From the IMG/VR virus record IMGVR_UViG_3300047560_002175, positions 1 through 64,000 of that record: a DNA stretch of 64,000 bases; one strand, written 5' to 3'. Every line of letters begins with the position of its first letter. The first letter of the stretch is position 1. This document shows, piece by piece, positions 10,625-57,058 of the stretch. Origin of the DNA: a virus. Its lineage: Duplodnaviria; Heunggongvirae; Uroviricota; Caudoviricetes. The notes beneath the pieces are model-generated. The model had not been told where the DNA came from, ran no database searches, and was given only the letters and a program-made list of their open reading frames with translations. A program made the translations under genes and the position numbers.

Positions 10625-10645
10625 AATATACCTCTTATAAAAAAA

Positions 10646-11014: not shown

Positions 11015-11035
11015 GATAAATCCCGTGTTATTAGT

Positions 11036-11043: not shown

Positions 11044-11044
11044 A

Positions 11045-13926: not shown

Positions 13927-13960
13927 TATTAGATCCTTGTGTAGTAGTTAATAAAGCAAT

Positions 13961-13989: not shown

Positions 13990-14837
13990 ATAATTTGACT
14001 GTTTATTTGTTGCAATTGTGCCACCAATTCTGGTTTGGTAACTGCAGGGGTTTTTATTTTTACAACAGTAACAAATCTTCCAATCTGTCTATTGTGTAAA
14101 TTAGTAAACCCGCCGTGCGCTTTTGCATATTCTGTACCAGGTTGTACTCCTGGTTTAATAGTAATGTTATGTTTTTCACCTATTAAGTTGGTAACTTCTT
14201 TAACACAACCAATCATTGCTTCAATTGGTGAAATTTCAATTGAAGTAAATATGTCATTACCTTCGCGTCTAAAATTAGGATCAGGTATTACATTTATAGT
14301 TACATTTAAATTACCACGTGGAACACCCGGCTGTGAGTTATCTCCTAAGCCGTCATATCTAATAGTATCTCCGTTATCAATACCTGCAGGTACGTTAATT
14401 ACAACATGCTGTGGTTCTCCGCTAGGCAAGTTAATATTAGCATCTATTTGTTTTCCTTTAAATGTATCTGCTAATGTGACTTGAATTTGTAAATTTAAAT
14501 CTCGGTTACGGCGACCTTGTTGGAATCCATGTGCAAAGTGTTGTCCAAAAATATCATGCATATTAAACTGGAAGCCTCCACCGAAACTGTTACTAAATGG
14601 TCCTCCTCCACCAAATCCACCAAATCCACCAAATGGATTTCCATTTTGTTGCATATCATATTCTTGGCGTTTTTGTGGATCACTTAATGTATCATATGCT
14701 ACTGAAATATCTTTAAATGTAGCTTGGTCTCCACCTTTGTCGGGATGATGTTTATTTGCTAATGAACGATATGCTTTTTTAATATCGTCTTGTGATGCAT
14801 CTTTTGATACACCTAATTTTGAATAAAAGTCTGTCAT
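13986..14837 (-). CDS. dnaJ: DnaJ-class J-domain co-chaperone without a Zn-finger (CbpA/Sis1-like)
   Basis: DFYSKLGV...YRSLANKHHPDKGGD J-domain with HPD. G/F-rich linker GGFGGFGGGG. C-terminal substrate-binding domains. Confidence 0.85.
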   Translation of the reverse strand: MTDFYSKLGVSKDASQDDIKKAYRSLANKHHPDKGGDQATFKDISVAYDTLSDPQKRQEYDMQQNGNPFGGFGGFGGGGPFSNSFGGGFQFNMHDIFGQHFAHGFQQGRRNRDLNLQIQVTLADTFKGKQIDANINLPSGEPQHVVINVPAGIDNGDTIRYDGLGDNSQPGVPRGNLNVTINVIPDPNFRREGNDIFTSIEISPIEAMIGCVKEVTNLIGEKHNITIKPGVQPGTEYAKAHGGFTNLHNRQIGRFVTVVKIKTPAVTKPELVAQLQQINSQII

Positions 14838-14875
14838 GATTAATCTCTCATAATAAAAGGTCAGTTAGTATAGTA

Positions 14876-14904
14876 ATTATACTATACTAGAACTGACCTG
14901 TCAA
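14876..14904 (-). promoter_or_regulatory. Sigma70-type promoter (TTGACA-17-TATAAT) for dnaJ, embedded in a palindrome
   Basis: Minus strand reads TTGACAGGTCAGTTCTAGTATAGTATAAT. An imperfect inverted repeat GGTCAGTT...AACTGACC is centred on the -10 box. Confidence 0.55.
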
Positions 14905-14912
14905 GATTTTGA

Positions 14913-15158
14913 TTACTTACGTTTTTTAACTACTTTTTTTGGTGCAGGTTTAGCTGCTGGTTTTACAACTGGTTTTTTAGGTGGAACTTTTTTACCTTCA
15001 AACTTCTTGTGAACTTTGATAGTTTTACATTGTTTCTTACCTTTTACAGTTTTGCAAACTTCTTTAGTAGTTGGACCAACGTGTCCTTCTTCATGATTAG
15101 CATACGCAACTGGAGCTGCTAACATGCCAATAATAATTAATGATAATAGTTTTTTCAT
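14913..15158 (-). CDS. Secreted Lys/Pro-rich small protein (signal peptide)
   Basis: MKKLLSLIIIGMLAAPVAYA signal-like N-terminus. KPxxKP repeats. Confidence 0.45.
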   Translation of the reverse strand: MKKLLSLIIIGMLAAPVAYANHEEGHVGPTTKEVCKTVKGKKQCKTIKVHKKFEGKKVPPKKPVVKPAAKPAPKKVVKKRK

Positions 15159-22498: not shown

Positions 22499-22527
22499 TG
22501 TGTTACCTTTATTAGTTAAAAAAATAT

Positions 22528-22556
22528 ATTATACAGTGAACGACACAACTTGTCAA
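22528..22556 (-). promoter_or_regulatory. Sigma70 consensus promoter (TTGACA-17-TATAAT) for the clamp-loader gene, inside an inverted repeat
   Basis: Minus strand reads TTGACAAGTTGTGTCGTTCACTGTATAAT. The GAACGACAC...GTGTCGTTC repeat surrounds the -35 box. Confidence 0.6.
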
Positions 22557-41220: not shown

Positions 41221-43272
41221 ATGAGTAGTTTTATAGGTAATAAACCAAATCAAGTACCAACAAATGGTGATCTGGGAAGATTAGCATTTATGGATTTTAT
41301 AGGCATGGAGGACATTGGGTCCTCCATCCCAACTATTGTATCTGCATCTAACATTTATCCACAAGTAAAGATATCTTATGTTAGTGGAACTGTTACAATT
41401 GATACAATAACTCCTCCTCAGGATTTAATAAATGGTGGACAAATAACGTTAATACCAACTGGAGTATTTGCATTAAGCACTTCTGGAAATATTGCACTTG
41501 CAATCAACTCTGAAATTTCAAAAGCAATTATTTTGACATATGATTCAGTTGTTGCAAAATGGTATCCAAGTTATACTAATACAGTTAATAATTTAACACT
41601 AAATGGTACTGCAAATTCTACTATTACACTTGGAACAGGTGGTACCGTTGCATACACAAAAGATAAATTATCAGTATTTGCGCAAACAACTGCATCAGAA
41701 TTTGCCAGTGTTATTTCAGATGGATCAACCGGTTCCGGTAAAATAGTATTGGCAACAAGTCCAACATTAGTAACACCTGTATTAGGTGCTGCAACTGCAA
41801 CTTCGATTAATAAAATTGCACTTACTGCAGTGGCTACTGGATCTACAATTACACTTGCAGATCAAAAAACATTAACCGTAAATAACACCGTAACACTTAC
41901 TGGTACTGATGCATCAACCATTACATTTGGGACAGGCGGTACCGTTACTTATACATCTAATAAATTATCAGTATTTGCTGCAACAACTTCATCTGAATTA
42001 GCTGGTGTTATTTCAGATGAAACTGGATCTGGTTTATTAGTGTTTAATACAAGTCCAACATTAGTAACACCTGCATTAGGTGCTGCAACTGCAACTTCAA
42101 TTAATAAAATTGCACTTACTGCGGTAGCTACTGGGTCTACAATTACACTTGCAGATCAAAAAACATTAACTGTAAATAATACAGTAACACTTACTGGTAC
42201 TGATGCATCAACCATTACATTTGGGACAGGCGGTACAGTTGCATATACATCTAATAAATTATCAGTATTTGCTGCAACAAGCTCATCTGAATTAGCCGGT
42301 GTTATTTCAGATGAAACTGGATTTAGTACAACTGGTTTACTGATGTTTAATAACAATCCAACAGTAGTTACTGGAATAGTTGCTGATGCAGCATCAACTA
42401 CATTTAATTTAATCAATACTGTTTCAACAACGGTAAATGCATTTGGTGCAGCAACAACATTAAATGTTGGATATACTGGTACAGGTGTAGCATCAACTAC
42501 AAATATTTCAACAGGAGCATTAGCTGGATCATTTATTAAAACAGTTAACTTAGGAACCGGCGCTGCTTCTGGATCAACTACTAATATTAATATTGGTTCA
42601 AATATTGCCGGAACTACAGCAATTAATAGTCCAACTATTTCTACATTAAGTGCTACTCTTGATTTATTTACAACAACTGTTGGAACTGTTAATTTTGGTA
42701 GTGTAGCCACTACTATGGGTATAGGATATACTGGTACTGCAGCATCTACACTTAATATTTCAACAGGCGCAGTTACAACTGGTACAACAAAAACAATCAA
42801 TATAGGAACAGGTGGAGCTGCAAGTTCTACTACAACTATGAATATTGGAACAAGTGCAGGCGCATCTAATGTAACAATTGGGTCAACTGTATCTGGTACA
42901 ACTACTGTTAATTACAATTTAGATGTATTGCAGAACATTACAGCTCGTCAAAATGTTACAGCATATTTTAGTTCTGATAGAAGATTAAAAGAAAACATCA
43001 CACCTATTGAAAACCCATTAGATAAGTTGTTAACATTATCAGGAAATACATTTAAGTGGTCTGATGAATACTATGCAACACAAAATCAAGAAATGGTTAA
43101 ACAATATGATGTTGGGGTTATTGCTCAAGAAGTATTAGAAGTATTGCCAGAAGCAGTACATGAGCGTGATTCTGGAATGTTAGCAGTTGATTATACAAAA
43201 TTAATACCATTATTAATTGAATGTATTAAGGCTCAACAAAAACAGATTGATAATTTATTAGCAAAGGAGTAA
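41221..43272 (+). CDS. Tail fibre/spike protein with a C-terminal intramolecular-chaperone auto-proteolytic domain (peptidase S74-like)
   Basis: C-terminal SSDRRLKENITPIENP...GNTFKWSDE motif (S-D-x-R-x-K-x-N-I). Internal 90-aa repeats. Confidence 0.8.
   Translation: MSSFIGNKPNQVPTNGDLGRLAFMDFIGMEDIGSSIPTIVSASNIYPQVKISYVSGTVTIDTITPPQDLINGGQITLIPTGVFALSTSGNIALAINSEISKAIILTYDSVVAKWYPSYTNTVNNLTLNGTANSTITLGTGGTVAYTKDKLSVFAQTTASEFASVISDGSTGSGKIVLATSPTLVTPVLGAATATSINKIALTAVATGSTITLADQKTLTVNNTVTLTGTDASTITFGTGGTVTYTSNKLSVFAATTSSELAGVISDETGSGLLVFNTSPTLVTPALGAATATSINKIALTAVATGSTITLADQKTLTVNNTVTLTGTDASTITFGTGGTVAYTSNKLSVFAATSSSELAGVISDETGFSTTGLLMFNNNPTVVTGIVADAASTTFNLINTVSTTVNAFGAATTLNVGYTGTGVASTTNISTGALAGSFIKTVNLGTGAASGSTTNINIGSNIAGTTAINSPTISTLSATLDLFTTTVGTVNFGSVATTMGIGYTGTAASTLNISTGAVTTGTTKTINIGTGGAASSTTTMNIGTSAGASNVTIGSTVSGTTTVNYNLDVLQNITARQNVTAYFSSDRRLKENITPIENPLDKLLTLSGNTFKWSDEYYATQNQEMVKQYDVGVIAQEVLEVLPEAVHERDSGMLAVDYTKLIPLLIECIKAQQKQIDNLLAKE
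41671..42330. repeat. Near-identical ~270-bp direct repeats (about 2.5 copies) inside the fibre gene
   Basis: Repeated protein segment LTAVATGSTITLADQKTLTVNNTVTLTGTDASTITFGTGGTV with nearly identical DNA. Confidence 0.7.
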
Positions 43273-43275
43273 TAC

Positions 43276-46200
43276 ATGACACTACCATTAAGCAATAATG
43301 CTATATCAATGGGACAAGTTAACACTGAATTAAACTTAGCAGCCAATGCACAAATATCATTAAATGATCCTGCAGTTCGTACATTACTTGCAAAAACAGG
43401 TGATAAGACAACCATTTCGTTAGCAGACGGTTGGGGTAAATCTAACATTGGAGCTGTAACAAATCTTGCAGTTACAAATGGATCAGTTACTGTTATGTCA
43501 GCTACTGTTACATGGACTACACCTGCAACAGGAACTATAACAAAATATGAAATTTATGCAAAAGATGCAAATAATGTAGTTAAAGGTTTAATAACAATTA
43601 ATGCACCATTTTCTCCAATACCAACATCTGCAACAGTAACTGGTATGGCGTCAAATACTGCATATACCATTTATGTTACTACGTCAAACACATCGTCAAG
43701 TGCAACTGCAAGTGCAACTGTTCCGGTAACAACATTAGCATACAACTTCCCATTTACTACAGTTTCCAATGTAAATCCAAATACAGTTACATCATCAACT
43801 GTGGTTTCAGTTGGTGGATTACCAGTAAATCAAATTGTTACAGTTTCGGTCTCAGGTAGTGCTGGCGCACAATTTGCTGCAGCAAGCACACAAGCTGGTG
43901 CAACTTCATTTACGTCAACTTCTGGATTATACACAGCATCATCAAGTGGTATATTATATGTTGCTGCTCGAGTCACTTCAGGAACATTTTTAGCTGATGC
44001 AACTGCAACTGTTACAGTTGGTGATGGCAGTAGTACATTCACTGCAACTACACGAGCAGCTGATATATCTCCATCAAACACAGTGCCAATTATAATTCCA
44101 GCAAAAATAGATGTTCCTATCAATTCAGCAGTAACGTCAGAACAGTTTACAATTACTGGATTAGAACCAAATTATACTGGATTAGTAATTAGTGCATCGG
44201 CTGGCGCAACATTTGTTGCAGGTCCAACTAGTGGATCGTTACCGTCAGTTTATGTAAATTCTGGGACATTTACAGTTGGCGCAGACACTAACATTTATAT
44301 TAAAGCAAGAGTAACATCGAGCTCATTATTTGGAGCTGATGTAACTGGAACTTATACTATTGGATCAGGTACAGCCACATTTAAAGCTACAACAACTTCA
44401 AATGCATTTACTATTCCTGCAAAAACTGGACAGGCAATTAATACATTAATTACTTCAGATTCAATACTTGTTACTGGTCTTGAATATTCTACAAGTTATC
44501 AAGTATCAGTTGCAAATGGGTCTGGTTCTACAGGTGCAGCTTATGAAGCAGTTACTGGTACAGGTACGTTAACAGGAACATTTACATCATCTACTACATC
44601 AGTAACATCATCTGCTGTAGGTGAAATAAGAGTACAAGTAAGAGTTCAATCAAGTACACAAGGTTCTACAACAACTAGTGCTACATTATCAATTGGATCT
44701 TATAAGTCAGGTACATTTAGTGTAACAACACCAGTTCCTGATACAAGTCCAACATTTGGATCAACTTTTGCAGCTATTACAAACGTTCCGTTAGGTTCGT
44801 TAATTTTAGCAGCAGAATCTCCAATAACAGTAACCAGTTTAGAACCAAATTATAATATTCCAGTTAGTGTTACTGGTGGGTATTATTATATATCATCATC
44901 AACATTTACACCAGGTAATGTAACATTTATTAATACCGACTCAACAGTTACAACACCGACCGGTACATTGTATCTTGGTCTTAAAGCATCTGCTAACTCG
45001 TCTTCGTTTTTAACTGATTCGACTGCAACTGTAACTATAGGTTCGGGATCAACTTCGTTTAAAGTTACAACTACAACAGGAACATTTTCATTTACAACAG
45101 CTTCAAATCTTAATATAAGCACATCTTCAACTTCAAATGTTATAGCAGTAAATGGTTTACCATATCCGGGTACTGTTACAGTTAGTATACCAAACGCTGA
45201 TGCTAAAGTTGATGCAGGTACAACAACATCAATGAGCGGAACATATGAGTTTATTAAGAGTAATGTTTCTACTGTACAAGACGGAACTGGCGGTAAGGTT
45301 TATTTAGCAATCCGAGGAACATCGAGTGATTTATTCTCAACTACCGTTACATATACTGCCAGCATAGCATACACGCAAGGAACAAAATCTGGTACTTATA
45401 GTATTGGAACAAGAGCAGCAGTTACACAACCATCGACTCAATTTACATTTACAGATTTAACTGGACAGGCAAGATCTTCAACAATTACATCTAGTCAGAT
45501 TTCAATTACTGTAGAACCTAATTATACTCACACTATCACTGCTACTACAAATACTGGTACAACTGTAGGAGTTGATGCAGGTACAACTACATCAATGAGT
45601 GGTTCTTATGGTACATCAAAATCAGTAACAACTGATGGAACTGGTGTAATTTATATAACGGCATCGGTACAAACAGGTACTGCATATTCGACTGCATATA
45701 ATTGTACAATAACCGTTGGCACAATGTCTGATACTTTTACAGCAACAACTCTTGTACAGATTATTATTCCAGGATCAATCACATTGGGATTTAGTGGCAC
45801 TACATCAAGTTCAACTACAATGACTATTTCAGCTGGAAGCGGAAGTGCACCTGATTCATATTATTATGAAAGATACACAGATGCTGCATATACTGCTAAT
45901 AAGTTTACTGGAACAAGTCAAAGTTCAAATAGTTTTTCAGTTAGCTTACCAAGTTCAAACACTACTTATTATATTAAAGGTTTTGCAACTAATACTGCAG
46001 GAACAGGTTCAGGAACAGGTTCAGTTACATCAGCTGCAGCAGCACCAACAAGTGCTTCGATAGCATTTTCGTCAATTGCTGAAACATCTGCAACATTAAC
46101 TGTTACATCGACTGGTGCAACAACATGGGGTTATCAGCAATATACTGATGCAAATTATAATGTAGCAGTCGGAAGTACTGTATCAAGTAATGCTACAAAT

Positions 46201-48642
46201 AGTTTTGGGTTGTCAAGTTTAACAGGTGCAACTTATTATTATTTTAAAGGGTATGGTTCAAATACTGGTGGATCATCACCGTATTCAGCAGGACAATCAG
46301 TTTTAACAGTTCCTGGGTCAGTATCGGTGACTGCATCAACTCCAGTTTGGAATGCAGCTAGTTCAGTTTACACTTATACTATTAGTCTTTCGTATACCGG
46401 AACGGTTTCATCGTGGATAGCATATAGAGGACAAAATCCAAATTTAACTGCACCAACCGCACTTGGTACTGGAATTTTACCAAGTTCGTCATTTTCTGCA
46501 ACATCAGCTGTAAGTACAACTACATATTATTCAGGAAAGGCAACTAATGCATCTGGAACATCTGCGTCATATGGGCCAACTATATCAGTAACAGTTGGAG
46601 CTGCTCCAATTACTGCACCATCTAGTGCATCAATTGCATCTTCGTCAATTACTGAAACTACGTTAACATTGACTATTACATCTACTAATGCTACAACTTG
46701 GGGTTATCAAGAATATACTAACTCAAATTATAACGTAGCAGTTGGAAATGCTGTATCAAGTACGTCTACAAATAGCTTTGGTGTAACAGGTCGTACTGGT
46801 GGTTCTACATATTATTATGCAGGTTTTGGTTCAAATGCATCGGGAACATCGCCGTATTCTACAGGAATATCAGTATTAATGAAACCAAGTACACCAACAT
46901 TAACAGTTAGTAGTACACCATCCTGGAATGCAACTACATCAAAATATGATTATAGTACAACTTATTCTGGAGGTGGAACAACAGTTTCTAGTTATAAATT
47001 GTATCAAGGAACTTCAACAAGTGATTCTAATCCTACATTGTTAGGATCTAGTATTGTTGCGGTAGGTGTGACAGCTTCTACTAGCATGTACCTTAGGGCA
47101 ACTGCAGTTAACACTTCAGGTGAGTCTAGTGCAACTGGGTATGCTACTATAACTGCACCAGCAGCACCAATAACACCAGCAGCTCCAACAATAACGTTTA
47201 CAGCAGGAACTGGTACAGGAGTTACAGTAACTATTTCAAGTACAAATGCAACCGCATACAAATATAGTTACGCAACAACTACACCGTCATCTGCATCAAC
47301 TGATAGCAATGGCACTGTTACAATAGCTAATGGTACACTGTCAACTAACACAACGTATTATTTCGTTGCAATTGCAATAAGAACTGCAGGTGGTGTAACT
47401 ACACAATCAGCACTATCAAGTGCATATTCATATGCAACACCAGCACCGGCAGTTGGTACTGCATCTATTACTATATCTGATGTAGGTATAAGAAGTATTA
47501 AAGGAACAGTTTCTGCAACCAATGCAACTTACTACTATACACAAAATTACGATCCATATGCAGTCGGTGTTTGGCCAACTCCAAGATATAGACCATCAAG
47601 TTCATCACAATGGACCACTAGTACTGCATTTTCTCAAAACATACCTAGCGGACAAGCTATGTATGTATTAGCAATTAATTATAAATCTGGGTTTAATCCA
47701 TATTCATCGACTGACGGATGGACAGGTGTAAATTCATTTTCAGAAGGATATTCGTCTGGAACTGTTACACTAGTAGCATCTACTGGAACATACAATTCTC
47801 CTTCAACATCTACTGCGTCATTAGCAATACCATGGGATGTTGTTAAAATTAGAATCAGTGCAACCGGCGGCGGCGGTGGAGGCGGTGGTGCTAACTCAGT
47901 TAATAATGACGGTACTGGAGGTGCAGGTGGTGGATCACCGACATTGGCTGCAACATTTAATAAACCATCAGGCCAAACACACTTACTGATTTCAGTAGGC
48001 GGTGGCGGATACAGTGGTAACGGCGGTGGTTATACAAGTGGAAGTGGCACTGGCGGTAATGGTGGTATTGGTATATCTGGATATGCAGGTGGTGCAGGTG
48101 GCACTAAAGGCGGCACTGGAGTTTCAGGTGGTGGCGGTGGCGGTGGCGGCGCTTCTGTAGTTTCTACATACCCTAATAGCTATACATTAATAGTAGTAGG
48201 CGGTGGCGGTGGCGGACTCGGTGGTACATATCAATATAAAAGCAACATACCAATCGGTGGTGTAGTAACATCGTATTCGGGTAAAACTGACTATTCGGGA
48301 ATGGTTAATGGTACTGCCGGTGCAACACCAATTGCAACCGTTAACGGTGGTGGCGGTGGCGGTGGCGCCGGACCAGGCGGAGCAGGTGGGGTTGCTGGTA
48401 AAGACAGTGTAAATCTACCCGGAATAGGCGGTGCAAGTGCAGTATATTATAACAGTACTTATTATGTCGGGTCTGGTGCAACTTGGACTGCAGCACCTAC
48501 TGCACTTGTAACATCAACGTCTACTGATGCACCAGGTACCGGTGGTAAAGGTGGAACTTCATTTAGTAATACTAATTATATTGCAGCTGATTCATGGGCT
48601 GGATCTGCCGGACAGGTAACTTATACATTCTATGATGTATAA
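43276..48642 (+). CDS. Large (1788 aa) Ser/Thr-rich structural protein with FN3-like repeats and a poly-Gly-rich C-terminal domain
   Basis: Repeated ...TW.Y..YT..NY...G...S...N.F...T..TYYY.K... modules. C-terminal GGGGGGGGAN...GGGGYSGNGGGYTSGSGTGGNGG tracts. Confidence 0.6.
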   Translation: MTLPLSNNAISMGQVNTELNLAANAQISLNDPAVRTLLAKTGDKTTISLADGWGKSNIGAVTNLAVTNGSVTVMSATVTWTTPATGTITKYEIYAKDANNVVKGLITINAPFSPIPTSATVTGMASNTAYTIYVTTSNTSSSATASATVPVTTLAYNFPFTTVSNVNPNTVTSSTVVSVGGLPVNQIVTVSVSGSAGAQFAAASTQAGATSFTSTSGLYTASSSGILYVAARVTSGTFLADATATVTVGDGSSTFTATTRAADISPSNTVPIIIPAKIDVPINSAVTSEQFTITGLEPNYTGLVISASAGATFVAGPTSGSLPSVYVNSGTFTVGADTNIYIKARVTSSSLFGADVTGTYTIGSGTATFKATTTSNAFTIPAKTGQAINTLITSDSILVTGLEYSTSYQVSVANGSGSTGAAYEAVTGTGTLTGTFTSSTTSVTSSAVGEIRVQVRVQSSTQGSTTTSATLSIGSYKSGTFSVTTPVPDTSPTFGSTFAAITNVPLGSLILAAESPITVTSLEPNYNIPVSVTGGYYYISSSTFTPGNVTFINTDSTVTTPTGTLYLGLKASANSSSFLTDSTATVTIGSGSTSFKVTTTTGTFSFTTASNLNISTSSTSNVIAVNGLPYPGTVTVSIPNADAKVDAGTTTSMSGTYEFIKSNVSTVQDGTGGKVYLAIRGTSSDLFSTTVTYTASIAYTQGTKSGTYSIGTRAAVTQPSTQFTFTDLTGQARSSTITSSQISITVEPNYTHTITATTNTGTTVGVDAGTTTSMSGSYGTSKSVTTDGTGVIYITASVQTGTAYSTAYNCTITVGTMSDTFTATTLVQIIIPGSITLGFSGTTSSSTTMTISAGSGSAPDSYYYERYTDAAYTANKFTGTSQSSNSFSVSLPSSNTTYYIKGFATNTAGTGSGTGSVTSAAAAPTSASIAFSSIAETSATLTVTSTGATTWGYQQYTDANYNVAVGSTVSSNATNSFGLSSLTGATYYYFKGYGSNTGGSSPYSAGQSVLTVPGSVSVTASTPVWNAASSVYTYTISLSYTGTVSSWIAYRGQNPNLTAPTALGTGILPSSSFSATSAVSTTTYYSGKATNASGTSASYGPTISVTVGAAPITAPSSASIASSSITETTLTLTITSTNATTWGYQEYTNSNYNVAVGNAVSSTSTNSFGVTGRTGGSTYYYAGFGSNASGTSPYSTGISVLMKPSTPTLTVSSTPSWNATTSKYDYSTTYSGGGTTVSSYKLYQGTSTSDSNPTLLGSSIVAVGVTASTSMYLRATAVNTSGESSATGYATITAPAAPITPAAPTITFTAGTGTGVTVTISSTNATAYKYSYATTTPSSASTDSNGTVTIANGTLSTNTTYYFVAIAIRTAGGVTTQSALSSAYSYATPAPAVGTASITISDVGIRSIKGTVSATNATYYYTQNYDPYAVGVWPTPRYRPSSSSQWTTSTAFSQNIPSGQAMYVLAINYKSGFNPYSSTDGWTGVNSFSEGYSSGTVTLVASTGTYNSPSTSTASLAIPWDVVKIRISATGGGGGGGGANSVNNDGTGGAGGGSPTLAATFNKPSGQTHLLISVGGGGYSGNGGGYTSGSGTGGNGGIGISGYAGGAGGTKGGTGVSGGGGGGGGASVVSTYPNSYTLIVVGGGGGGLGGTYQYKSNIPIGGVVTSYSGKTDYSGMVNGTAGATPIATVNGGGGGGGAGPGGAGGVAGKDSVNLPGIGGASAVYYNSTYYVGSGATWTAAPTALVTSTSTDAPGTGGKGGTSFSNTNYIAADSWAGSAGQVTYTFYDV

Positions 48643-49853: not shown

Positions 49854-50651
49854 TTATGTCCAAAGTCCGTCTCTTATTTTAATAAGTCTAATCATCATTT
49901 CAGTATCTTCGATTTGATATTTTTGTTCAATCTCATGTTCAATTTCTCGCATAGATTTAAGTTTAGCATCTTCTTCTGGAGGACGATCTCTAAATATATC
50001 ACCTGTGTCGTTATCGTAAAACTCATTAATACCCGATGTATCACTTGGATCAACTCGGTTAGGACGCTCTTCAGTCCACCAAGTATATAATCTTGCAAGT
50101 TCTATTGCTACTACTGCTTGGTGTGATAACCTTGGAAAGTTAGATTCTGAATCAGGATAAGTTATTGAAGAAGCCCATTGTAAATAGTCTAAACCAGCTT
50201 GTTTACAACGCCAACCTCTAACATGTCCAAACCAACGATCTGGGTAATTATATTTTTCTTTTGCATGTTCATCGTCCCATCTAATATAACTCCATGCTAA
50301 TTCAATTTCAACAAAATTAACTAATTCGTTAAACATACATGGTAAAAATCTACCACCAAGATCTTGCCATGTTCCGGGTTTAATATCTTGTGGGTGAGCA
50401 GTCAATGCATGTGTTTTTGTAATCCATCTATTATCAATATAATATTTAATATTGTAATAAGTGTCTTGAGGAAACATAACCACATCTTGAATTTTATCAA
50501 GTAGTGTTTCTGCAATCCAATATCGAACTGGGTGGGTGGCCTTAGCAATCGTAGAAATAGAAGTCCACCCTTCACTAGATGCGTATTCAGGGTACTCAGT
50601 TCCACGAATCCAAGTACCAAACTTGCTTAAAGACCAATAGTTAGCTCTCAT
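49854..50651 (-). CDS. Hypothetical protein
   Basis: 265-aa Trp-rich ORF. Confidence 0.45.
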   Translation of the reverse strand: MRANYWSLSKFGTWIRGTEYPEYASSEGWTSISTIAKATHPVRYWIAETLLDKIQDVVMFPQDTYYNIKYYIDNRWITKTHALTAHPQDIKPGTWQDLGGRFLPCMFNELVNFVEIELAWSYIRWDDEHAKEKYNYPDRWFGHVRGWRCKQAGLDYLQWASSITYPDSESNFPRLSHQAVVAIELARLYTWWTEERPNRVDPSDTSGINEFYDNDTGDIFRDRPPEEDAKLKSMREIEHEIEQKYQIEDTEMMIRLIKIRDGLWT

Positions 50652-50663: not shown

Positions 50664-51164
50664 TTAGTTATTTACGAATTGTTGTAAACTTGGTGGAGAA
50701 TAAGATTCTGGTTTTAAGATCTTACCATCCTCTCTTTTGATAACTTTACCTGTAGTTGGATCTACTTTAGACATATTTGATCGAATTACTTCATTCCATG
50801 CACCTTCTGCATCTACACCTAATGAATGTAATGCACCAACTGTAACAACTAAAATATCAATTAGTGCATCAAGTTGTTCAACACGATCATTATCATCAAC
50901 TGCAGCATGTAATTCACCGACTTCTTCTTTAATTAAATCTAAGTACATATTATATTGTGATTCACTGTAAGTGTCAACTGATTGATCACCAGCTATCATA
51001 AATGTTTTTTGATCTGTAAATACGTTTGTCATATAATTCCTTTTTTTAGTTGTTTCTATTAAATCTTTAATTATTTCTTTGTCGACTTCTTTCATTATTT
51101 CTTCGCCTAATATACGAGTTAGTTCTCTTTCTTGCAGTGACCGGTAATGTGGTTTAAGTTTCAT
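50664..51164 (-). CDS. mazG: MazG-like nucleoside triphosphate pyrophosphohydrolase
   Basis: EEVGELHAAVDDNDRVEQLDALIDILVVTVGAL pattern of the all-alpha NTP-PPase family. Confidence 0.65.
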   Translation of the reverse strand: MKLKPHYRSLQERELTRILGEEIMKEVDKEIIKDLIETTKKRNYMTNVFTDQKTFMIAGDQSVDTYSESQYNMYLDLIKEEVGELHAAVDDNDRVEQLDALIDILVVTVGALHSLGVDAEGAWNEVIRSNMSKVDPTTGKVIKREDGKILKPESYSPPSLQQFVNN

Positions 51165-51244: not shown

Positions 51245-51439
51245 TCATTCATTTTTAATGTCTTTGGTTAGGGTTGGTGTAACACATCCGACCGGTTTAG
51301 GTCGGATGTATGGTTCTTTTATAAACTCTACGTGGCAATCCACGCATATAAACATATCCCTAGATGTTATAATTAACATCCCAGCGCCGCAACGCGGACA
51401 CTGGTTTCCTGTTACTTCTTCATATGACTGTGTAGTCAT
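51245..51439 (-). CDS. Small Zn-ribbon protein
   Basis: CPRC...CVDC. Confidence 0.4.
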   Translation of the reverse strand: MTTQSYEEVTGNQCPRCGAGMLIITSRDMFICVDCHVEFIKEPYIRPKPVGCVTPTLTKDIKNE

Positions 51440-52800
51440 TTAGTCTTTCCCATTGCGCTATCAAACTGATCCTGTATTCGTTGCAACGAATCAGCTTCTG
51501 ATTTATCTTTGCGGAACTCTACAAATCTTGGCAAAAATAAACTGTAATATTGGTTGCTTGATGTAGGTGGCATAATGTTATTAGATTTAATTGTTACAAT
51601 AGTTCCATATAACTCGTCTTTACGAGTAAAGATATCTTTACGTAAATCATCTGAGAAACCAGAAGCATTTACTTCTAACAATTCATCTGAAGAGCGACAA
51701 GTAATTGAACCAAACAGTTTTTCGTTTTTACCTTTGCCTTCTGTAAATCCTACAATTTCTAAATCAACATCTACTTCAAGTTTAAGTTTAACTTGGTCTT
51801 TGCTTGTACCATCACGCCATTTAGCATCTGGACGTTTAATAATAGTACCTTCAAGACCTTGTTCTACTAACTCAAGGTAATGTTTAAATGCTTCTTCCCA
51901 TGAAAACACTAACTTAGTTTCAATCATTTTAACATATTGATAATCAGTTACTGCTTGTGATGCTACTCGATTTTTTAATTTATGGTATCGATCCCTATAC
52001 TCTTCAGAGCCTTTACCTTTTGGTACAGCTTCAGATAACGGAATTTGATCCCATACTAAAAATAATGGCCATTCATTTTCAGCAAACGATCCGCCGTCTG
52101 AAACACTGTTTAAAATACCATTGCCAATTTCACGTGGTAACACAACTCCGTCACGACATACAACAAGTTCGCCATGTGTTTGTGTATTACATTCCATTTT
52201 ACGTTGCATGTAATCAACAATGCCTTTAAATTGGTCTAACGGCATTGGATTACCACTTCTGCTTAATAATTCAATAGACAAGTCTTCATAGAAGTTAGCA
52301 TTGATATACATGCCGTCTGCTTTTAACTGTGAATACACACCTTTAGACCATGGCCAAGTATCAAGTTTAACATGTTTAGGTAATGAGCAACGTTGATATG
52401 GAAACTCTGGAATTAAACCCTTCCACACTTTATTTACTGTGGCTGCTTGAACACCACAGCGCAAGTCTTTATTTACAATTTTGATAACAACCTGTGCATC
52501 TTGTGCTGATACTGATTCTAAAATATTTTTAAGATGATCAATGCCTGCGTGACCTGTATAAGTACGGTCAGCTAGTGCATGTAAGTGGACAATAGCTTCG
52601 TCAAGCTGCATTTTTGCAAGTCCTGTGTTAGGAGTAAACTCAGGAATTTTTTTGATATTAAACGGTAGTAATTTATTATTAGCACAGTAGCAAATGTCTT
52701 TCAACAACTTGTTAGTGCTGTTCTGTTTGAGGATAGCTAATTTAGCGTTAGTTTTAGGTTCATTAGCTAACTGCTCTAAAATTGTAGAGATCATATACAC
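51436..52800 (-). CDS. ATP-dependent DNA ligase
   Basis: KADGMY adenylation motif (KxDG), about 450 aa as in T4 ligase. AGGAG RBS. Confidence 0.75.
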   Translation of the reverse strand: MYMISTILEQLANEPKTNAKLAILKQNSTNKLLKDICYCANNKLLPFNIKKIPEFTPNTGLAKMQLDEAIVHLHALADRTYTGHAGIDHLKNILESVSAQDAQVVIKIVNKDLRCGVQAATVNKVWKGLIPEFPYQRCSLPKHVKLDTWPWSKGVYSQLKADGMYINANFYEDLSIELLSRSGNPMPLDQFKGIVDYMQRKMECNTQTHGELVVCRDGVVLPREIGNGILNSVSDGGSFAENEWPLFLVWDQIPLSEAVPKGKGSEEYRDRYHKLKNRVASQAVTDYQYVKMIETKLVFSWEEAFKHYLELVEQGLEGTIIKRPDAKWRDGTSKDQVKLKLEVDVDLEIVGFTEGKGKNEKLFGSITCRSSDELLEVNASGFSDDLRKDIFTRKDELYGTIVTIKSNNIMPPTSSNQYYSLFLPRFVEFRKDKSEADSLQRIQDQFDSAMGKTK

Positions 52801-52823
52801 TCCTGTTTAATTAAAAAAAATAT

Positions 52824-52852
52824 ATTATACAGCAATTAGCTAATGTTGTCAA
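52824..52852 (-). promoter_or_regulatory. Sigma70 consensus promoter (TTGACA-17-TATAAT) for the DNA ligase
   Basis: Minus strand reads TTGACAACATTAGCTAATTGCTGTATAAT. Confidence 0.6.
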
Positions 52853-52955
52853 GAGTTAATCATCTAATAAAAACATTAGTATTGCCAGTGTTGAAATGAT
52901 TGCGCACATTACTGCACCAAATTCGTCTGCTACATTAGTCATAAGTATTCCCCCA

Positions 52956-52987
52956 TAAAAAAAGCTCTTGGTGTCAACCAAGAGCTT
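52956..52987 (-). terminator. Rho-independent terminator after the BI-1 gene
   Basis: AAGCTCTTGG-TGTCAA-CCAAGAGCTT hairpin followed by a U7 run on the minus strand. Confidence 0.65.
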
Positions 52988-53007
52988 TGATACCATGCTA
53001 ATAATAT

Positions 53008-53712
53008 TTAGTCTTTGGAACTAAGGATGTTTAATAAACTTAAAAATAAGTTGATAAAATCCAAATACAAGTTCAATGCACATAACAGTTCGGTATTAGT
53101 GTTTGCGCTATATCTGAGCATTTCTTGAGTTTTCTGAACATCGTATGCAGTAAAGCCCATAAACACAATAATAGTAATGCCACTAATAACTAAACTGAAT
53201 ACTGAACTCATAACAAAGATATTAATCAGCCCAGCAAAAATCAATGCAATTAAACCAACCATTAAAAAGTCACCCCATGATGACAAATCTCGTCGTGTAT
53301 AAGCACCATATACTGCCATAGAACCAAATAGCACTGCTGCACTGGACAATGCAGTAGCAACTGATTCAAACGAAGCCATTGCTATTGCTGGCCCCATCAT
53401 AACACCAATCATCGATGAAACGATTAAAAATCCAACATAACCAACGACTGAACTAGCATCATCGTTAGTTAAAAACCAAGCTAATAACATTATTGCAGGT
53501 AATGGTGCAAATATTGAAACCCAAAGCATAGGGCCGGTGTATAAGAAATGCATTAGTGCAGGACTGGCATAGACTGCTGCAACTGTCAAAAATGACGTTA
53601 AGATTGATAAGAACACATTTTTATATACACGCACCATTGGTGTATATACAAGTTCTTTTTGTAAAGCTGATAACATATTATTCTCCTTTATATTTAGGTT
53701 GTTGACCTGCAC
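53008..53712 (-). CDS. Bax-inhibitor-1 / YccA-family seven-TM membrane protein
   Basis: MAVYGAYTRRDLSSWGDFLMVGLIALIFAGLINIF and ISGITIIVFMGFTAYDVQKTQEM match the BI-1/YccA signature. Confidence 0.7.
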   Translation of the reverse strand: MQVNNLNIKENNMLSALQKELVYTPMVRVYKNVFLSILTSFLTVAAVYASPALMHFLYTGPMLWVSIFAPLPAIMLLAWFLTNDDASSVVGYVGFLIVSSMIGVMMGPAIAMASFESVATALSSAAVLFGSMAVYGAYTRRDLSSWGDFLMVGLIALIFAGLINIFVMSSVFSLVISGITIIVFMGFTAYDVQKTQEMLRYSANTNTELLCALNLYLDFINLFLSLLNILSSKD

Positions 53713-53962
53713 TTGCCATAATAATTTCTTTATTAGGTCCGCAGGAATAAAATTCTACTTCGTAAAGATCTCTCGCGTGACCTAAGTATGTACACCCAAG
53801 AGGTTTTGAAATTGCTCGTCTTTGATCAGTGTATTTTACAGTATTAAATGTTAATCCTCCAACTACTGCTAACCCAACCATTACAACTGTTACTAATGCG
53901 GATTGAAATATCAGTCCGCCTAATACTCCTAAGAAAATTATTAGTATCATTGTTAAAATCAT
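53678..53962 (-). CDS. Small two-TM membrane protein
   Basis: 94-aa ORF overlapping both neighbours. Confidence 0.35.
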   Translation of the reverse strand: MILTMILIIFLGVLGGLIFQSALVTVVMVGLAVVGGLTFNTVKYTDQRRAISKPLGCTYLGHARDLYEVEFYSCGPNKEIIMASAGQQPKYKGE

Positions 53963-54987
53963 TCTGTAACTCCTTTAGAATTGTGATAATTATATAGTTC
54001 AAATGAAGCAAGGTTTTTGCCTTTGCTTTCTGCCATTATGTCAAAGTTATCTAAAAAGCTCAATGCCCAGTCATTGACTGCAACATTCCAGTAAAAGTTA
54101 GAATGAGCTCGAAGTTTTTGTTTATTTAATCCAGATTCAAGCAATAGTTGAAGTTCTGGCAAAGTTTGTTTGTTATGGGTTGGTAGCACATCTTCCCTAC
54201 TAATAGAATAATGCATAGTGGGGCGACGACCACGCCAGCTATCAATAACCCTTTGTACGCGCTCATCGTCCGGCTGTATGTATTCGCCTGTTTTAATAAA
54301 GTGATGGTGTATATCCAAAACCACAGGTACTCTACTAGCAAGGGTAAGGCAGTCATCAAGTCCAAAAGAAATCTCCTCATTTTCTACAGTAATACAATTT
54401 TTAGCAACATCGCTTAATCTTTCGTAAGCGTCTAAGAAACCTTGTGGACCACGTTTACCTGCAATATGCACATTGATTTTCATATCCTGAAATTCCTTGC
54501 CATATCCCATCCAACGTGCCATGTCTGCATGATATTCAAATTCTTCAATACTGCGTTCAACTACGTCATCTCGATCAGATGCTAGTACACAAAACTGACC
54601 TGGGTGGAAACTAAGTTTAATATCATTCGTTTTTGCAATTTCGCCAACACGAGCAAACTCACGCGCAATATAAGCAATCACATCAGGTTTTTTGTAAAAG
54701 TAAGAATAGTTTTCGTGTGTGTAAACAGGAAGTATATCGCTACTAATACGTAACATACGTAATGGTTGTGGAAGTGTAGAAACTTTGAGTACTAATTTAC
54801 GAGTAGCTTCAATATTTTGTTTTATTAGTTCCCACAGTTTTTTCTCAGCATTAGCTGGGAGTTGTCTGCCAAGCCAAGCAACTGTAGTAGTGCCTGTGTT
54901 ATATTTTTTACAATCGTCAGTTGATTTAATTCCGTCAACTTGATGCGGAAAATCAATAAACTTGCAAGCAAAGCCTATTCTGTACAT
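53959..54987 (-). CDS. uvdE: UV-damage endonuclease UvdE
   Basis: RISSDILPVYTH, SFHPGQFCVLAS, INVHIAG, ITVENEE, LDIHHHF and DIMAESKGKNLA line up with Bacillus/S. pombe UVDE. Confidence 0.8.
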   Translation of the reverse strand: MYRIGFACKFIDFPHQVDGIKSTDDCKKYNTGTTTVAWLGRQLPANAEKKLWELIKQNIEATRKLVLKVSTLPQPLRMLRISSDILPVYTHENYSYFYKKPDVIAYIAREFARVGEIAKTNDIKLSFHPGQFCVLASDRDDVVERSIEEFEYHADMARWMGYGKEFQDMKINVHIAGKRGPQGFLDAYERLSDVAKNCITVENEEISFGLDDCLTLASRVPVVLDIHHHFIKTGEYIQPDDERVQRVIDSWRGRRPTMHYSISREDVLPTHNKQTLPELQLLLESGLNKQKLRAHSNFYWNVAVNDWALSFLDNFDIMAESKGKNLASFELYNYHNSKGVTE

Positions 54988-55011
54988 GAATACCTCGTGT
55001 TAGTAGTGAAT

Positions 55012-55037
55012 AAAAAAGGGGTCATAAGACCCCTTAT
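55012..55037 (-). terminator. Rho-independent terminator
   Basis: AAGGGGTC-ATAA-GACCCCTT hairpin plus a U-run on the minus strand. Confidence 0.6.
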
Positions 55038-55040
55038 TGT

Positions 55041-55289
55041 TTAAGCAACGTTGTGTACTGGTTCACTAAATTTTAATGCAAACCATGCAAACTTTTCATC
55101 GGAATTAAATTGAACGTATTGTTCGTTGTCACCGTCAAATACAATGTGTGCATCGTATTCTGCTAATGCTTCTTGTGCAATACGTCTAACGCCGTCTTTG
55201 TCGTTGTCAAGAATATGTTGACGAACTGTTGCCATGTACCAGTTGTCGTGAAGTTTTGTATCAAATTCTAATTTATGCATAGTAAACAC
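55041..55289 (-). CDS. Hypothetical protein
   Basis: 82-aa ORF with its own promoter and terminator. Confidence 0.4.
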   Translation of the reverse strand: MFTMHKLEFDTKLHDNWYMATVRQHILDNDKDGVRRIAQEALAEYDAHIVFDGDNEQYVQFNSDEKFAWFALKFSEPVHNVA

Positions 55290-55304
55290 CTCATGTAAGT
55301 AATT

Positions 55305-55333
55305 AAAAAAAATATATTATACAATAATAATAA
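55305..55333 (-). promoter_or_regulatory. Sigma70-type promoter (TTGCAA-17-TATAAT)
   Basis: Minus strand reads TTGCAATTGTTTTATTATTATTGTATAAT. Confidence 0.5.
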
Positions 55334-55357
55334 AACAATTGCAAGTACTAAGACATT

Positions 55358-55388
55358 CAAAAAGAAAGGAGCCTAAGCTCCTTTCTGT
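55358..55388 (-). terminator. Rho-independent terminator after pmoC
   Basis: AAAGGAGC-CTAA-GCTCCTTT hairpin plus CTTTTTG on the minus strand. Confidence 0.6.
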
Positions 55389-55404: not shown

Positions 55405-56175
55405 CTACGCTAAGTTGGATTTAAGTAATTTTGAAATAGCTTGTACTTCAATATTTACCACACCTAATACACCTAAAGCAGCCCATCCAAAGAATACAAA
55501 CCCGTAGTGTAATGGTGCTACGAATAGTTCTTCCATGAACCAGAAAGTGTGTCCCCATTCGTTTAATCCAACGTTTGGAAGAATCATAAATGGCCCGATT
55601 ACAGATACCATGTATTGTAATGGTAAGCCTTTTTGGTAGGTAGGCAAGCGTGTTTTAGCATATAAGAATGCTGCGACACCTGTGATGATGTAGATAGGAT
55701 AACTTAGATAAAACTCAATAACATGACTTGGTGTAAAATCAGTATCACGGACAATCGTTTGATGCCATGTACCATCTTGTTCTGTAAAGTATGAAGCACC
55801 GTAATAAATTGCAATACCATACATTACTAACCAAACCCAGTGTGTAAAATGTCGACGCAGTTCCTCGCGAGGTGTAATTGACATTACGTTGCGATCACGT
55901 GATTTCCAAAGATAACCCCATAATACAGAAGCGGTTAGGATTTCAAGAACCATTTCAATGTATAGGAAGTTCATCCAATATGTTTCAAACTCTGGTGCAA
56001 ATGAGTCTAAACCAGCAGACCATCCATAAACACCTTCATACCAACGGACCCACCCGTAAAATACAACGTACAACGCTGCACCTGCGAGCATGTTTGTTTT
56101 GTTTAAAAGTGAAGCTTCTTTAGCTTCAGCTTTTACTGTTTCAATTGTAGCTGACATGTTGTTTCTCCTAAGCAA
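55405..56175 (-). CDS. pmoC: Ammonia/particulate-methane monooxygenase subunit C (AmoC/PmoC family, bacterial type)
   Basis: SYFTEQDGTWHQTIVRDTDFTPSHVIEFY...AFLYAKTRLP and MILPNVGLNEWGHTFWFMEELFVAPLHYGFVFFGWAAL closely match bacterial AmoC/PmoC. Six hydrophobic helices. AGGAG RBS. Confidence 0.85.
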   Translation of the reverse strand: MLRRNNMSATIETVKAEAKEASLLNKTNMLAGAALYVVFYGWVRWYEGVYGWSAGLDSFAPEFETYWMNFLYIEMVLEILTASVLWGYLWKSRDRNVMSITPREELRRHFTHWVWLVMYGIAIYYGASYFTEQDGTWHQTIVRDTDFTPSHVIEFYLSYPIYIITGVAAFLYAKTRLPTYQKGLPLQYMVSVIGPFMILPNVGLNEWGHTFWFMEELFVAPLHYGFVFFGWAALGVLGVVNIEVQAISKLLKSNLA

Positions 56176-56325: not shown

Positions 56326-56532
56326 CTATCTTGGTGGGAAATCTTGCGGTGGAAGTGGATGTCCTTCATGTTTGTGATGTCTGGTATAATGATGTTCTAA
56401 ATTACCAGGTCTAATATAATCACGGTGGACAGGCTTTGAATCGCAGCCTGTCATTAAAAATACTGCAAATAGCAAACTAACGACTAGTAACAATTTCATC
56501 GACAAGCCCATACATAACACTCTCTTCAGCAC
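56326..56532 (-). CDS. Small His-rich lipoprotein (candidate periplasmic metal-binding peptide)
   Basis: Lipobox LMTGC. Mature part contains HHYTRHHKHEGH. The start may be at an internal Met because the ORF overlaps the clpP 3' end. Confidence 0.45.
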   Translation of the reverse strand: MLKRVLCMGLSMKLLLVVSLLFAVFLMTGCDSKPVHRDYIRPGNLEHHYTRHHKHEGHPLPPQDFPPR

Positions 56533-57058
56533 TCATAAAACAATCACGACTCATGTCTTGTTTAAGTTTTTCAAACGATTGTCCAGTGTTTTTTACATAC
56601 ACTTCAGTTAAATAAGTATTCAACTTTAATGTTTCTTCAAGTGCAATTTGCATGTCAATTGCAGTACCGCGTGTACCTGAACTAACTTGATGAATCATGT
56701 GTCTTGCGCTTGGAAGAATTTTACGTTTACCTTTAGCACCTGAACTAGCAAGTAAACTGCCCATACTACATGCTTGACCCATAACAATAGTAGAAACATC
56801 TGGTTTGATAAAGTTCATTGTATCGTAAATTGCAAGTCCTGCAGTAACTGAACCACCTGGGCTATTGATAAAGAAGTGGATATCTTCGGTACCTTGACTT
56901 TCTAAGAACAGTAACTGGGCAACAATAATACTTGAAGATTGTTCGTTAACATCTGTATCTAACATAATAATCCTATCTTTGAGCAATCGCGAATAAATGT
57001 CATAACTGCGTTCGCCTTTTGCTTCTTGTTCTACGACCATTGGGATTAAACTTGGCAT
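56477..57058 (-). CDS. clpP: ClpP serine protease subunit
   Basis: GQACSMGSLL (catalytic Ser) and HMIHQ (His), with the typical ClpP fold pattern. GGAG RBS. Confidence 0.85.
   Translation of the reverse strand: MPSLIPMVVEQEAKGERSYDIYSRLLKDRIIMLDTDVNEQSSSIIVAQLLFLESQGTEDIHFFINSPGGSVTAGLAIYDTMNFIKPDVSTIVMGQACSMGSLLASSGAKGKRKILPSARHMIHQVSSGTRGTAIDMQIALEETLKLNTYLTEVYVKNTGQSFEKLKQDMSRDCFMSAEESVMYGLVDEIVTSR

Follow-up and report, generated by a model that had tools for sequence, protein, structure and literature searches.

Layout of the locus

We analysed 64,000 nucleotides of viral DNA (Caudoviricetes; positions 1 to 64,000 of the IMG/VR record IMGVR_UViG_3300047560_002175), referred to here as the window, in which three consecutive genes near pmoC encode a homologue of UV-damage endonucleases (uvdE), a small membrane-anchored protein (orf94) and a protein of the Bax-inhibitor-1 family (BI-1/TMBIM). 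An initial annotation had joined the three with pmoC into a stress-survival cassette for an energy-stressed host. The gene content and boundaries of the locus suggest instead that the three genes belong to an optional insertion, of the kind that is gained and lost in shuffling regions of large phage genomes.

In the open reading frame (ORF) listing of the window, uvdE (54987..53959; 342 aa), orf94 (53962..53678; 94 aa, with a conserved Cys-containing C-terminal domain) and the BI-1 gene follow one another on the minus strand, to which all coordinates below refer unless stated otherwise. The stop codon of uvdE and the start codon of orf94 overlap by 4 nt (ATGA), and orf94 has the ribosome-binding site (RBS) AAAGGAG. 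For BI-1, the longest-ORF rule gives a start at GTG 53712 and a protein of 234 aa (53712..53008). A start at ATG 53676 (53676..53008; 222 aa) is most likely because another AAAGGAG lies 7 nt upstream of it, the 222-aa form is the call of two gene callers, and its N-terminus agrees with that of the nearest homologue, on contig L001. A public copy of this form, 100% identical, is found on a contig of 372,173 bp. With this start the orf94 stop codon and BI-1 are separated by 1 nt (TAAtATG), so that of three ORFs first described as overlapping only uvdE and orf94 do so.

The strong terminator annotated at the end of the trio was recovered as T3, a predicted intrinsic terminator 3′ of BI-1 (52988..52961) with a 12-bp stem, a 4-nt loop and U7 (ΔG −17.0 kcal/mol, z −4.84). 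Two more lie upstream. T1 (55386..55363; 10-bp stem, ΔG −16.5 kcal/mol, z −5.38) stands 3′ of pmoC, and T2 (55035..55016; 8-bp G+C-rich stem and U-tract, ΔG −14.0 kcal/mol, z −3.87) occupies the gap between orf82 and uvdE, its end ~28 nt from the uvdE ATG. The gene orf82 (55289..55041; 82 aa, probably 79 aa from ATG 55280, with GAGG as Shine-Dalgarno (SD) sequence) sits between pmoC and uvdE, and its product has no PDB or family match. It is preceded by P1, a sigma70-like promoter (TTGCAA-17-TATAAT) that ends in a 24-nt motif, TGTATAATATATTTTTTTTAATTA (55344..55300 in all). The neighbouring pmoC (56157..55405; Pfam AmoC 2e-121) probably starts at ATG 56157 (250 aa) rather than at TTG 56175; having its own terminator, T1, followed by a promoter, it is a separate transcription unit. 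Between T2 and the uvdE start codon there is no sigma70-like promoter, the only weak match (9/12) lying inside orf82, and uvdE-orf94-BI-1 is thus without a recognisable promoter of its own. On the side opposite pmoC the block is flanked by a gene for an ATP-dependent DNA ligase (52800..51436), driven by P2, a consensus sigma70 promoter (TTGACA-17-TATAAT) that also carries TGTATAATATATTTTTTTTAATTA (52852..52808 in all). Between T3 and P2 lies orf28 (52942..52856), which encodes a conserved hydrophobic peptide of 28 aa.

The block is an insertion with promoter and terminator boundaries

In the region studied, the nearest relatives of the window are five contigs (L181-L183, L185 and L186; ligase 82-87%, orf64 88-94% and PmoC 95-97% identical) with the gene order MPE-ClpP-orf68-PmoC-orf28-ligase-orf64-MazG-orf265, and none of them has a counterpart of orf82-uvdE-orf94-BI-1 between PmoC and ligase. 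When the junctions were aligned, the pmoC stop codon of L183 was found to be followed by the 13-mer TAAATATTATTAG, then by a near-identical copy of the T1 hairpin and then by orf28. In the window, this 13-mer stands at the stop codon of BI-1, which it includes (53010..52998). The L183 junction and the placement of TAAATATTATTAG together identify ~2.4 kb (roughly 55362..52961) as an insertion, with T1 at its left-hand and the 13-mer at its right-hand junction. L181 carries a different, unrelated insert of ~1 kb at the same site between pmoC and orf28.

The boundaries resemble the PeSL elements of T4-type phages, which consist of a stem-loop and, after it, a near-consensus sigma70 early promoter, an SD sequence and an ATG, and which mediate modular shuffling in hyperplastic regions (PMC2839356, PMC4122927). 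At the left end, T1, the P1 promoter boxes (55344-55316), GAGG and the ATG of orf82 form the same array of stem-loop, promoter, SD and start codon. The 24-nt TGTATAATATATTTTTTTTAATTA, which covers the -10 box and the transcript start, has exact copies at 55323..55300 and 52831..52808, with 0 expected by chance, and a third copy with 3 mismatches at 22535..22512, giving two exact copies and one diverged copy in 64 kb. Each exact copy is downstream of a terminator hairpin; on the P2 side the hairpin is T3, ~110 nt upstream, with orf28 in between. TGTATAATATATTTTTTTTAATTA is likely the signature of a set of early promoters in which the first transcribed nucleotides are also conserved. PeSL elements also coincide with the boundaries of insertions and deletions (indels), and this is the case here, since L183 lacks the block exactly between its T1-like hairpin and orf28. 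Homologues of the orf28 peptide (MTNVADEFGAVMCAIISTLAILMFLLDD; 67-86% amino acid identity) are encoded in 11 viral pmoC loci, each time in the interval from pmoC to ligase, and because of this conservation orf28 is probably a real micro-protein gene.

Taken together, we read P1, orf82, T2, uvdE, orf94, BI-1 and T3 as an optional accessory insertion of ~2.4 kb between pmoC and orf28/ligase, placed in a hyperplastic early-gene region and carrying genes that are independent cargo rather than a co-evolved cassette, and we put the probability of this reading at about 0.7.

Gene neighbourhoods of uvdE, BI-1 and pmoC

Relatives of UvdE (51-73% identity) were found on 58 IMG/VR contigs, a set that, like the other loci compared here, was retrieved by similarity to the window, so that its counts are biased and not phylogenetically independent. 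Within 8 kb of UvdE, BI-1 occurs in 1/58 and PmoC in 2/58, while ClpP, ligase, MazG and orf265 occur in 7-9 each. UvdE is widely conserved in this phage group, often beside ligase, ClpP or MazG, and in six loci the ligase gene comes directly after UvdE, behind its own promoter. Beyond this, the genes that follow UvdE differ greatly from locus to locus, and L001 is the only one of 53 independent loci with a BI-1 start within 1.5 kb downstream. Within flanks of ±10 kb, UvdE is near pmoC in one of 80 viral pmoC loci and BI-1 in two of the 80. The check for synteny in related genomes that the initial annotation had called for went against a conserved cassette: apart from window-type strains, in which the trio is adjacent, its order recurs in L001, and there with genes intercalated.

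Judging by gene order, the recurrent neighbours of BI-1 are MazG, orf265 and the orf94 family, and not UvdE. In five divergent contigs (L001, L018, L067, L167 and L169) the gene next downstream of BI-1 is a homologue of orf265, and the order orf94-MazG-BI-1 is shared by L001 and L255. L001, the nearest relative that bears BI-1, reads ligase-PmoC-helicase-like ORF-UvdE-small ORFs-orf94-MazG-BI-1-orf265. This keeps the relative order of the window with genes intercalated, so the block of the window could derive from an L001-like arrangement by recombination and deletion. L223 offers a second, independent case of BI-1 near pmoC. This 129 kb contig has a divergent pmoC (PmoC 61% identical) and, 3.7 kb further downstream (region 9989-15085), a bona fide Bax1-I gene (7e-49) among unrelated cargo with DPBB, methyltransferase and 2OG-oxygenase genes.

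These neighbourhoods bear directly on the idea that uvdE, orf94 and BI-1 form a co-selected stress-survival module which, with pmoC, keeps an infected host alive under energy stress and UV exposure. The three genes are closely packed in one orientation and translationally coupled, their order is repeated in L001, BI-1 is near pmoC in the divergent L223 and both genes are found in the published pmoC-phage genome CB_2, and the phage also has ClpA-like, DnaJ and ClpP proteostasis genes, all of which would fit such a module. We nevertheless consider it improbable, given that the block is missing from the nearest pmoC-phage relatives, that UvdE on the 58 related contigs is nearly always without BI-1 or pmoC, that pmoC loci so rarely have either gene nearby, and that terminators part pmoC from the block and orf82 from uvdE. 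PmoC is moreover the sole protein specific to pmoC phages (Chen et al., PMC7674155).

UvdE

The UvdE assignment was borne out. The protein matches Pfam PF03851 (2.3e-41, 142.3 bits, cut-off 24), phrog_8420 of the PHROGs ('endonuclease', UvdE-type; 1e-85) and the solved UVDE structures from Sulfolobus (3tc3, 8.5e-23) and Thermus (2j6v, 2.6e-15), and it narrowly passes the cut-off of the TIGR00629 equivalog (128.5 bits, cut-off 124.45). A check for missing metal-binding His, Asp or Glu residues found them kept: in an alignment with 15 phage homologues, H128, H174, D225, H228, H259, H295 and E320 are invariant and E202 is conserved in at least 90%. The three-metal ligands of the Thermus enzyme (Tth UVDE) are reported to be H101, H143, E175, D200, H203, H231, H244 and E269 (Paspaleva 2007). 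H128, H174, E202, D225, H228 and H259 align to residues of this metal site, H295 is part of an RAHS motif, and E320 lies in a DIMAESKGK motif that aligns with DIMLEVKDK of the Sulfolobus enzyme (SacUVDE). By these family matches, UvdE is predicted to be a bona fide UVDE-family endonuclease with a TIM-barrel and three metals.

UVDE enzymes are known for three-metal catalysis and a Gln-Tyr probing finger, in which Tyr104 of SacUVDE works by stacking (PMC3553973). In the window the finger reads HPGQF, with Gln131 kept and Tyr replaced by Phe132, as throughout the phage clade; by analogy, Phe132 could stack as Tyr104 does. The position of the carboxylated Lys229 of Thermus is Thr257 in the window. 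It varies among phage UvdE proteins and is Met in SacUVDE, and the lysine is therefore not universal in the family. The phage clade also has an insertion of ~30 residues between H259 and H295.

Such departures from characterised UVDEs (Phe for the finger Tyr, no carboxylated Lys, additional residues before the last His) would suit a general structure-specific nuclease with a role other than UV repair, for example in breaking down host DNA or in acting on replication or recombination intermediates, abasic sites or mismatches. The UVDE homologue of S. pombe, Uve1, cuts non-UV lesions, and methanotroph hosts near oxyclines would meet weak UV. We regard a role of this kind as very unlikely for UvdE. 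The protein passes the equivalog cut-off, every metal-ligand position is kept, as is the Gln of the probing finger, and Phe could stack like Tyr104 of SacUVDE (PMC3553973). UvdE also adjoins DNA ligase in six relatives, and free virions gather UV damage wherever the host lives.

The role that we favour is excision repair. In phage DNA, UvdE would nick on the 5′ side of UV photoproducts or other distortions, and the repair so started would be completed by a polymerase, a flap nuclease and the phage ATP-dependent ligase. UvdE would in this way be a functional analogue of T4 endonuclease V (DenV), the phage-encoded enzyme that starts the repair of UV photoproducts in phage DNA and a precedent for such a function. 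Among cultured jumbo phages (of Erwinia, Dickeya, Aeromonas and Vibrio), 118 records annotate the same type of UvdE as 'putative UV damage endonuclease', and the UvdE of the window is ~45% identical to these proteins. A repair role is accordingly neither new nor tied to methanotrophy or surface water, and the surface-water UV setting first proposed for the phage amounts to speculation. Among pmoC phages, the UvdE family has been tabulated without discussion for CB_2, CB_1, LR_6 and TP6_1 (Table S7 of Chen et al. 2020, PMC7674155). We found no biochemically characterised phage UvdE.

BI-1

The BI-1 assignment was equally sound. The protein matches Pfam PF01027 (Bax1-I) at 7.2e-45 (153.8 bits, cut-off 34.1) over profile positions 4-207 of 207, and the PHROGs hold no family for it. 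The AlphaFold2 (AF2) model has a pLDDT of 88.7 and a pTM of 0.85. When it was compared with the PDB by Foldseek, YetJ accounted for all of the top 10 matches (E 2e-7 to 1e-6, TM-score 0.70-0.83), and the match after these had E=0.7. Profile and predicted fold both argue against an unrelated family with seven transmembrane (TM) helices.

D179 and D206 of BI-1 align to the pH-sensor residues D171 and D195 of YetJ. D179 does not vary among 50 homologues, 11 of which, including L001, have Asn in place of D206. Among the E. coli paralogues, BI-1 is closer to YbhL (34% identity, E=1e-28), which has both sensor aspartates, than to YccA (27%, E=7e-13), which has neither, and its score with the YccA equivalog (NF007765) is 39.3 bits (E 6e-10) against a cut-off of 353. 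From the closer match to YbhL, the aspartate pair and the score far below the YccA cut-off, BI-1 is best classified as a YbhL/YetJ-type TMBIM protein of the inner membrane and not as a YccA orthologue.

This classification goes against the FtsH argument in the initial annotation, which rested on YccA. In its fuller form the argument would have BI-1 work on host FtsH in the manner of YccA, as an inhibitor or pseudo-substrate, and so shield SecY or phage-made membrane proteins, orphan PmoC for example, from degradation. BI-1 shares the Pfam family of YccA and weakly matches its equivalog model, and the JGI name of the identical protein is 'FtsH-binding integral membrane protein'. Phage interference with FtsH has a precedent in lambda CIII, and unassembled membrane proteins are FtsH substrates. 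The distance to the equivalog cut-off, the nearer relationship to YbhL, the aspartate pair that YccA lacks, and the absence of BI-1 from nearly all pmoC loci make this action improbable, and FtsH modulation by BI-1, which is possible by analogy, is less supported than a role as YbhL/YetJ-type protein. In the latter role BI-1 would most likely serve, in the inner membrane of the host and over a long infection, either as a pH-gated cation (Ca2+/H+) leak or as a membrane-homeostasis factor.

Viral BI-1 genes form several clades on contigs of 100-560 kb. Cultured-phage records are nearly devoid of TMBIM/BI-1, with 9 weak partial matches in 50,697, and a literature search for phage-encoded YccA, BI-1 or TMBIM found nothing relevant. 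In the published pmoC phages, a 233-aa, 7-TM protein of the Bax1-I family is tabulated without comment for CB_2 only (Table S7, PMC7674155). The recurrence of phage TMBIM proteins with a small membrane partner in environmental jumbo phages is unstudied, and it is the one moderately novel element of the locus.

The small membrane protein orf94

The initial annotation described orf94 as a protein with two TM helices. Its membrane anchoring is supported, and the anchor is one long hydrophobic stretch (residues 1-40) that is only possibly two helices; a strain variant is a 77-aa, single-TM form. Homologues were obtained by tblastn and an exhaustive phmmer search, whereas a word-indexed search and a viral pattern scan returned only orf94 itself. 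They comprise proteins on L172 (65% identity), L001 (51%) and L255 (50%) and, from the exhaustive search, four small single-pass membrane proteins (P0243, P0245, P0246 and P0249). Each has a membrane anchor at its N-terminus and, towards the C-terminus, the motif GC.Y(L/I)G.ARDL..V.FY.C. There is no Pfam, NCBIfam or PADLOC assignment for orf94, and its one PHROG match is weak (phrog_2682, E=0.006). Accordingly placed, orf94 is a member of a small phage family of single-pass membrane proteins that recurs with MazG and BI-1. We also considered orf94 as a WD40-like blade, prompted by phmmer matches to multi-repeat proteins, and rejected it: P0242 is a low-complexity repeat and the WD40 matches are marginal (E ~1e-4).

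Compared with L172 (579-812), orf94 has diverged between near-identical flanks. Nucleotide identity in the C-terminal domain is 80%, and 17 of the codon changes there are nonsynonymous and 5 synonymous. An indel sets the two membrane anchors apart, with one versus two hydrophobic helices. On either side, BI-1 differs at 1/669 nt (99.85% identity), a single nucleotide difference on which the comparison for purifying selection on BI-1 with the strain variant rests, and the UvdE part differs at 8/582 nt (98.6%). This makes orf94 a swapped or fast-evolving island, and the pattern suggests allele swapping or diversifying selection.

The window/L001 lineage and L255 both combine BI-1 with an orf94-family protein, and orf94 may be a partner or regulator of BI-1. 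A bolder proposal is that YbhL/YetJ-type TMBIM channels and a fast-evolving single-pass partner of the orf94 family make up an unrecognised host-takeover module of environmental jumbo phages, one that tunes inner-membrane ion and pH homeostasis or membrane-protein quality control in long infections and is gained preferentially in the hyperplastic region that also takes up auxiliary metabolic genes (AMGs) for membrane proteins, such as pmoC. Such a module would be represented in the window/L001 lineage and in L255, with BI-1 near pmoC in window/L001 and L223 and both genes in CB_2. We consider this unlikely.

pmoC, the phage and its host

The neighbour of the block was rightly named pmoC. PmoC is 82-92% identical to its best 80 bacterial matches, most of which come from metagenome-assembled genomes and isolates that bear the name Methylococcales or that of one of its genera (Methylobacter, Methylomonas, Methylovulum), and its identity to Methylococcales PmoC is also given as 86-92%. 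An amoC identity was considered, as the best NCBIfam model is 'AmoC_BACT' and amoC phages exist. It was ruled out: the best 80 genomic matches are nearly all Methylococcales, their genera or methanotroph symbionts, with 0 ammonia oxidisers. The Methylococcales-type matches thus support the pmoC label and a gamma-methanotroph host despite the NCBIfam name. The gene stands alone, without adjacent pmoA or pmoB, as in the pmoC phages described by Chen et al. 2020 (Nat Microbiol, PMC7674155).

Phage structural genes in the window include tail-fibre proteins and giant ORFs. Two of the latter, on the plus strand at 29085-41210 (4,041 aa) and 43276-48642 (1,788 aa), flank a tail-fibre-like gene (41221-43272) and presumably encode virion or fibre proteins. 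A megablast search of the window against GenBank phages gave no match. The gene content and the ~372 kb contig support a jumbo myophage that infects Methylococcales methanotrophs.

Upstream of pmoC, a strong hairpin with a U-tract (56214-56189, ΔG −14.4 kcal/mol) lies between a promoter-like cluster (56308-56234) and the pmoC RBS, where it could act as a leader attenuator or mark the 3′ terminus of an upstream transcript. A ClpP protease gene (56477-57058; 6.5e-72) is found two genes upstream of pmoC, and its 3′ end is overlapped by orf68 (56326-56532), whose product has a lipoprotein-like signal (…LFAVFLMTGC…). Homologues of orf68 (54-57% identity) lie likewise between ClpP and PmoC in L181-L183, L185 and L186. 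In L181, L182, L185, L186, L191 and L193, tblastn finds pmoC in two pieces ~250 nt apart, around 10600-11000, consistent with the 'fragmented pmoC' of Chen et al. (PMC7674155). At 11647-14837 the window encodes a 759-aa ClpA-type double-AAA+ unfoldase (Clp_N, AAA, AAA_lid_9, AAA_2 and ClpB_D2-small; phrog_4871 1e-245) and, adjoining it, a DnaJ co-chaperone of 283 aa. ClpA-like, DnaJ and ClpP make a sizeable phage proteostasis set, and a broader proteostasis theme is conceivable.

On the ligase side, orf265 (49854-50651), the most consistent immediate downstream neighbour of BI-1 in related phages, encodes a hypothetical phage protein with very many relatives (3,429 database matches at ~50% identity); it has no Pfam domain, and its confident all-helical AF2 model has no informative structural neighbour. 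Pfam also recognised the ligase, MazG and ClpP genes of this neighbourhood. The MazG-like pyrophosphohydrolase (50664-51164) has ~60 N-terminal residues that weakly match major-capsid (Gp23) profiles (Pfam 7e-5; phrog_138 1e-4). The PHROG family of MazG, phrog_671, spans 678 positions, which hints at fusion or mis-clustering in related phages. PADLOC defence models gave 0 matches for any of six proteins.

Discussion

Several points weigh against our reading of the block as an insertion of independent cargo. The locus counts carry the retrieval bias described above. UvdE, orf94 and BI-1 keep their order and orientation in L001 and are adjacent in window-type strains, so some co-selection is possible. 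Two divergent lineages (window/L001 and L223) have BI-1 at most 10 kb from pmoC, the CB_2 genome also contains both, and this could reflect more than shared residence in one hyperplastic region. Past T2 the trio has no recognisable promoter, and read-through or a phage-specific promoter is possible. For the proteins themselves, the probing-finger Tyr is replaced by Phe and the Thermus Lys229 by Thr257 in UvdE, the second sensor aspartate of BI-1 is Asn in about a fifth of the homologues (11/50), and the Arg60 latch of YetJ (TM2) is not conserved, aligning, in a stretch where the alignment is uncertain, to an acidic loop (T70-N71-D72-D73).

What we describe is an accessory insertion of members of known families, and UvdE in jumbo phages had already been annotated. 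In this phage the genes beside pmoC should not be taken for a functional module with it: the site is a shuffling hot-spot, and the genes are its cargo. The block clearly illustrates, for a phage that is not of the classical T4 group, an indel with terminator and early-promoter modules at its ends, and it supports PeSL-like shuffling as a general route by which jumbo phages gain and lose auxiliary genes, the neighbours of pmoC included. With TMBIM/BI-1 recurrent on many large environmental viral contigs and in several clades, the benefit of a bacterial 'Bax inhibitor' to a phage becomes a testable question.

Comparison with known systems

UvdE shares with UVDE/Uve1 of Thermus (2j6v) and Sulfolobus (3tc3) and with UVDE of cultured jumbo phages the Pfam/TIGRFAM family, the metal-ligand His, Asp and Glu residues and the HPGQ motif. 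It differs in its Gln-Phe finger, where UVDE/Uve1 has Gln-Tyr, in the Thr at Thermus Lys229 and in the ~30-residue insertion before the last His. T4 endonuclease V, the functional precedent, is unrelated in fold and chemistry: it is a pyrimidine-dimer glycosylase/AP lyase, whereas UVDE incises the 5′ phosphodiester directly.

BI-1 shares the 7-TM fold of YetJ of Bacillus subtilis and YbhL of E. coli and both sensor aspartates, in YD and LYLDFINLF motifs. Unlike these proteins it is phage-encoded, its loop is acidic (TNDD) where the Arg60 latch would be, and its N-terminus is shorter than that of YbhL. With the FtsH modulator YccA of E. coli it has superfamily, length and topology in common; the aspartate pair is found in BI-1 only, identity is 27%, and the equivalog is missed by a wide margin. 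A virus-encoded TMBIM protein is also known from poxviruses, whose vGAAP is a viral TMBIM4 homologue (PMC3346125); it shows that viruses do acquire members of this family as a means of altering the ion fluxes and survival of the host. vGAAP belongs to a eukaryotic virus and to a Golgi and apoptosis context, with no evolutionary link to the phage genes.

The pmoC phages of Chen et al. (PMC7674155) are likewise large freshwater myophages with a stand-alone pmoC, ~90% identical to PmoC of gammaproteobacterial methanotrophs; the insertion architecture beside pmoC is not described there, and UvdE and BI-1 are merely tabulated. From the PeSL of T4-type phages, the block differs in the low number of copies (two exact and one diverged in 64 kb), in the right end, where hairpin and promoter are split by the 28-codon orf28, and in the phage lineage, which is the Rak2-like/jumbo group according to Chen et al. 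What the two have in common is a repeated sequence, its position at indel boundaries and its place in a hyperplastic region.

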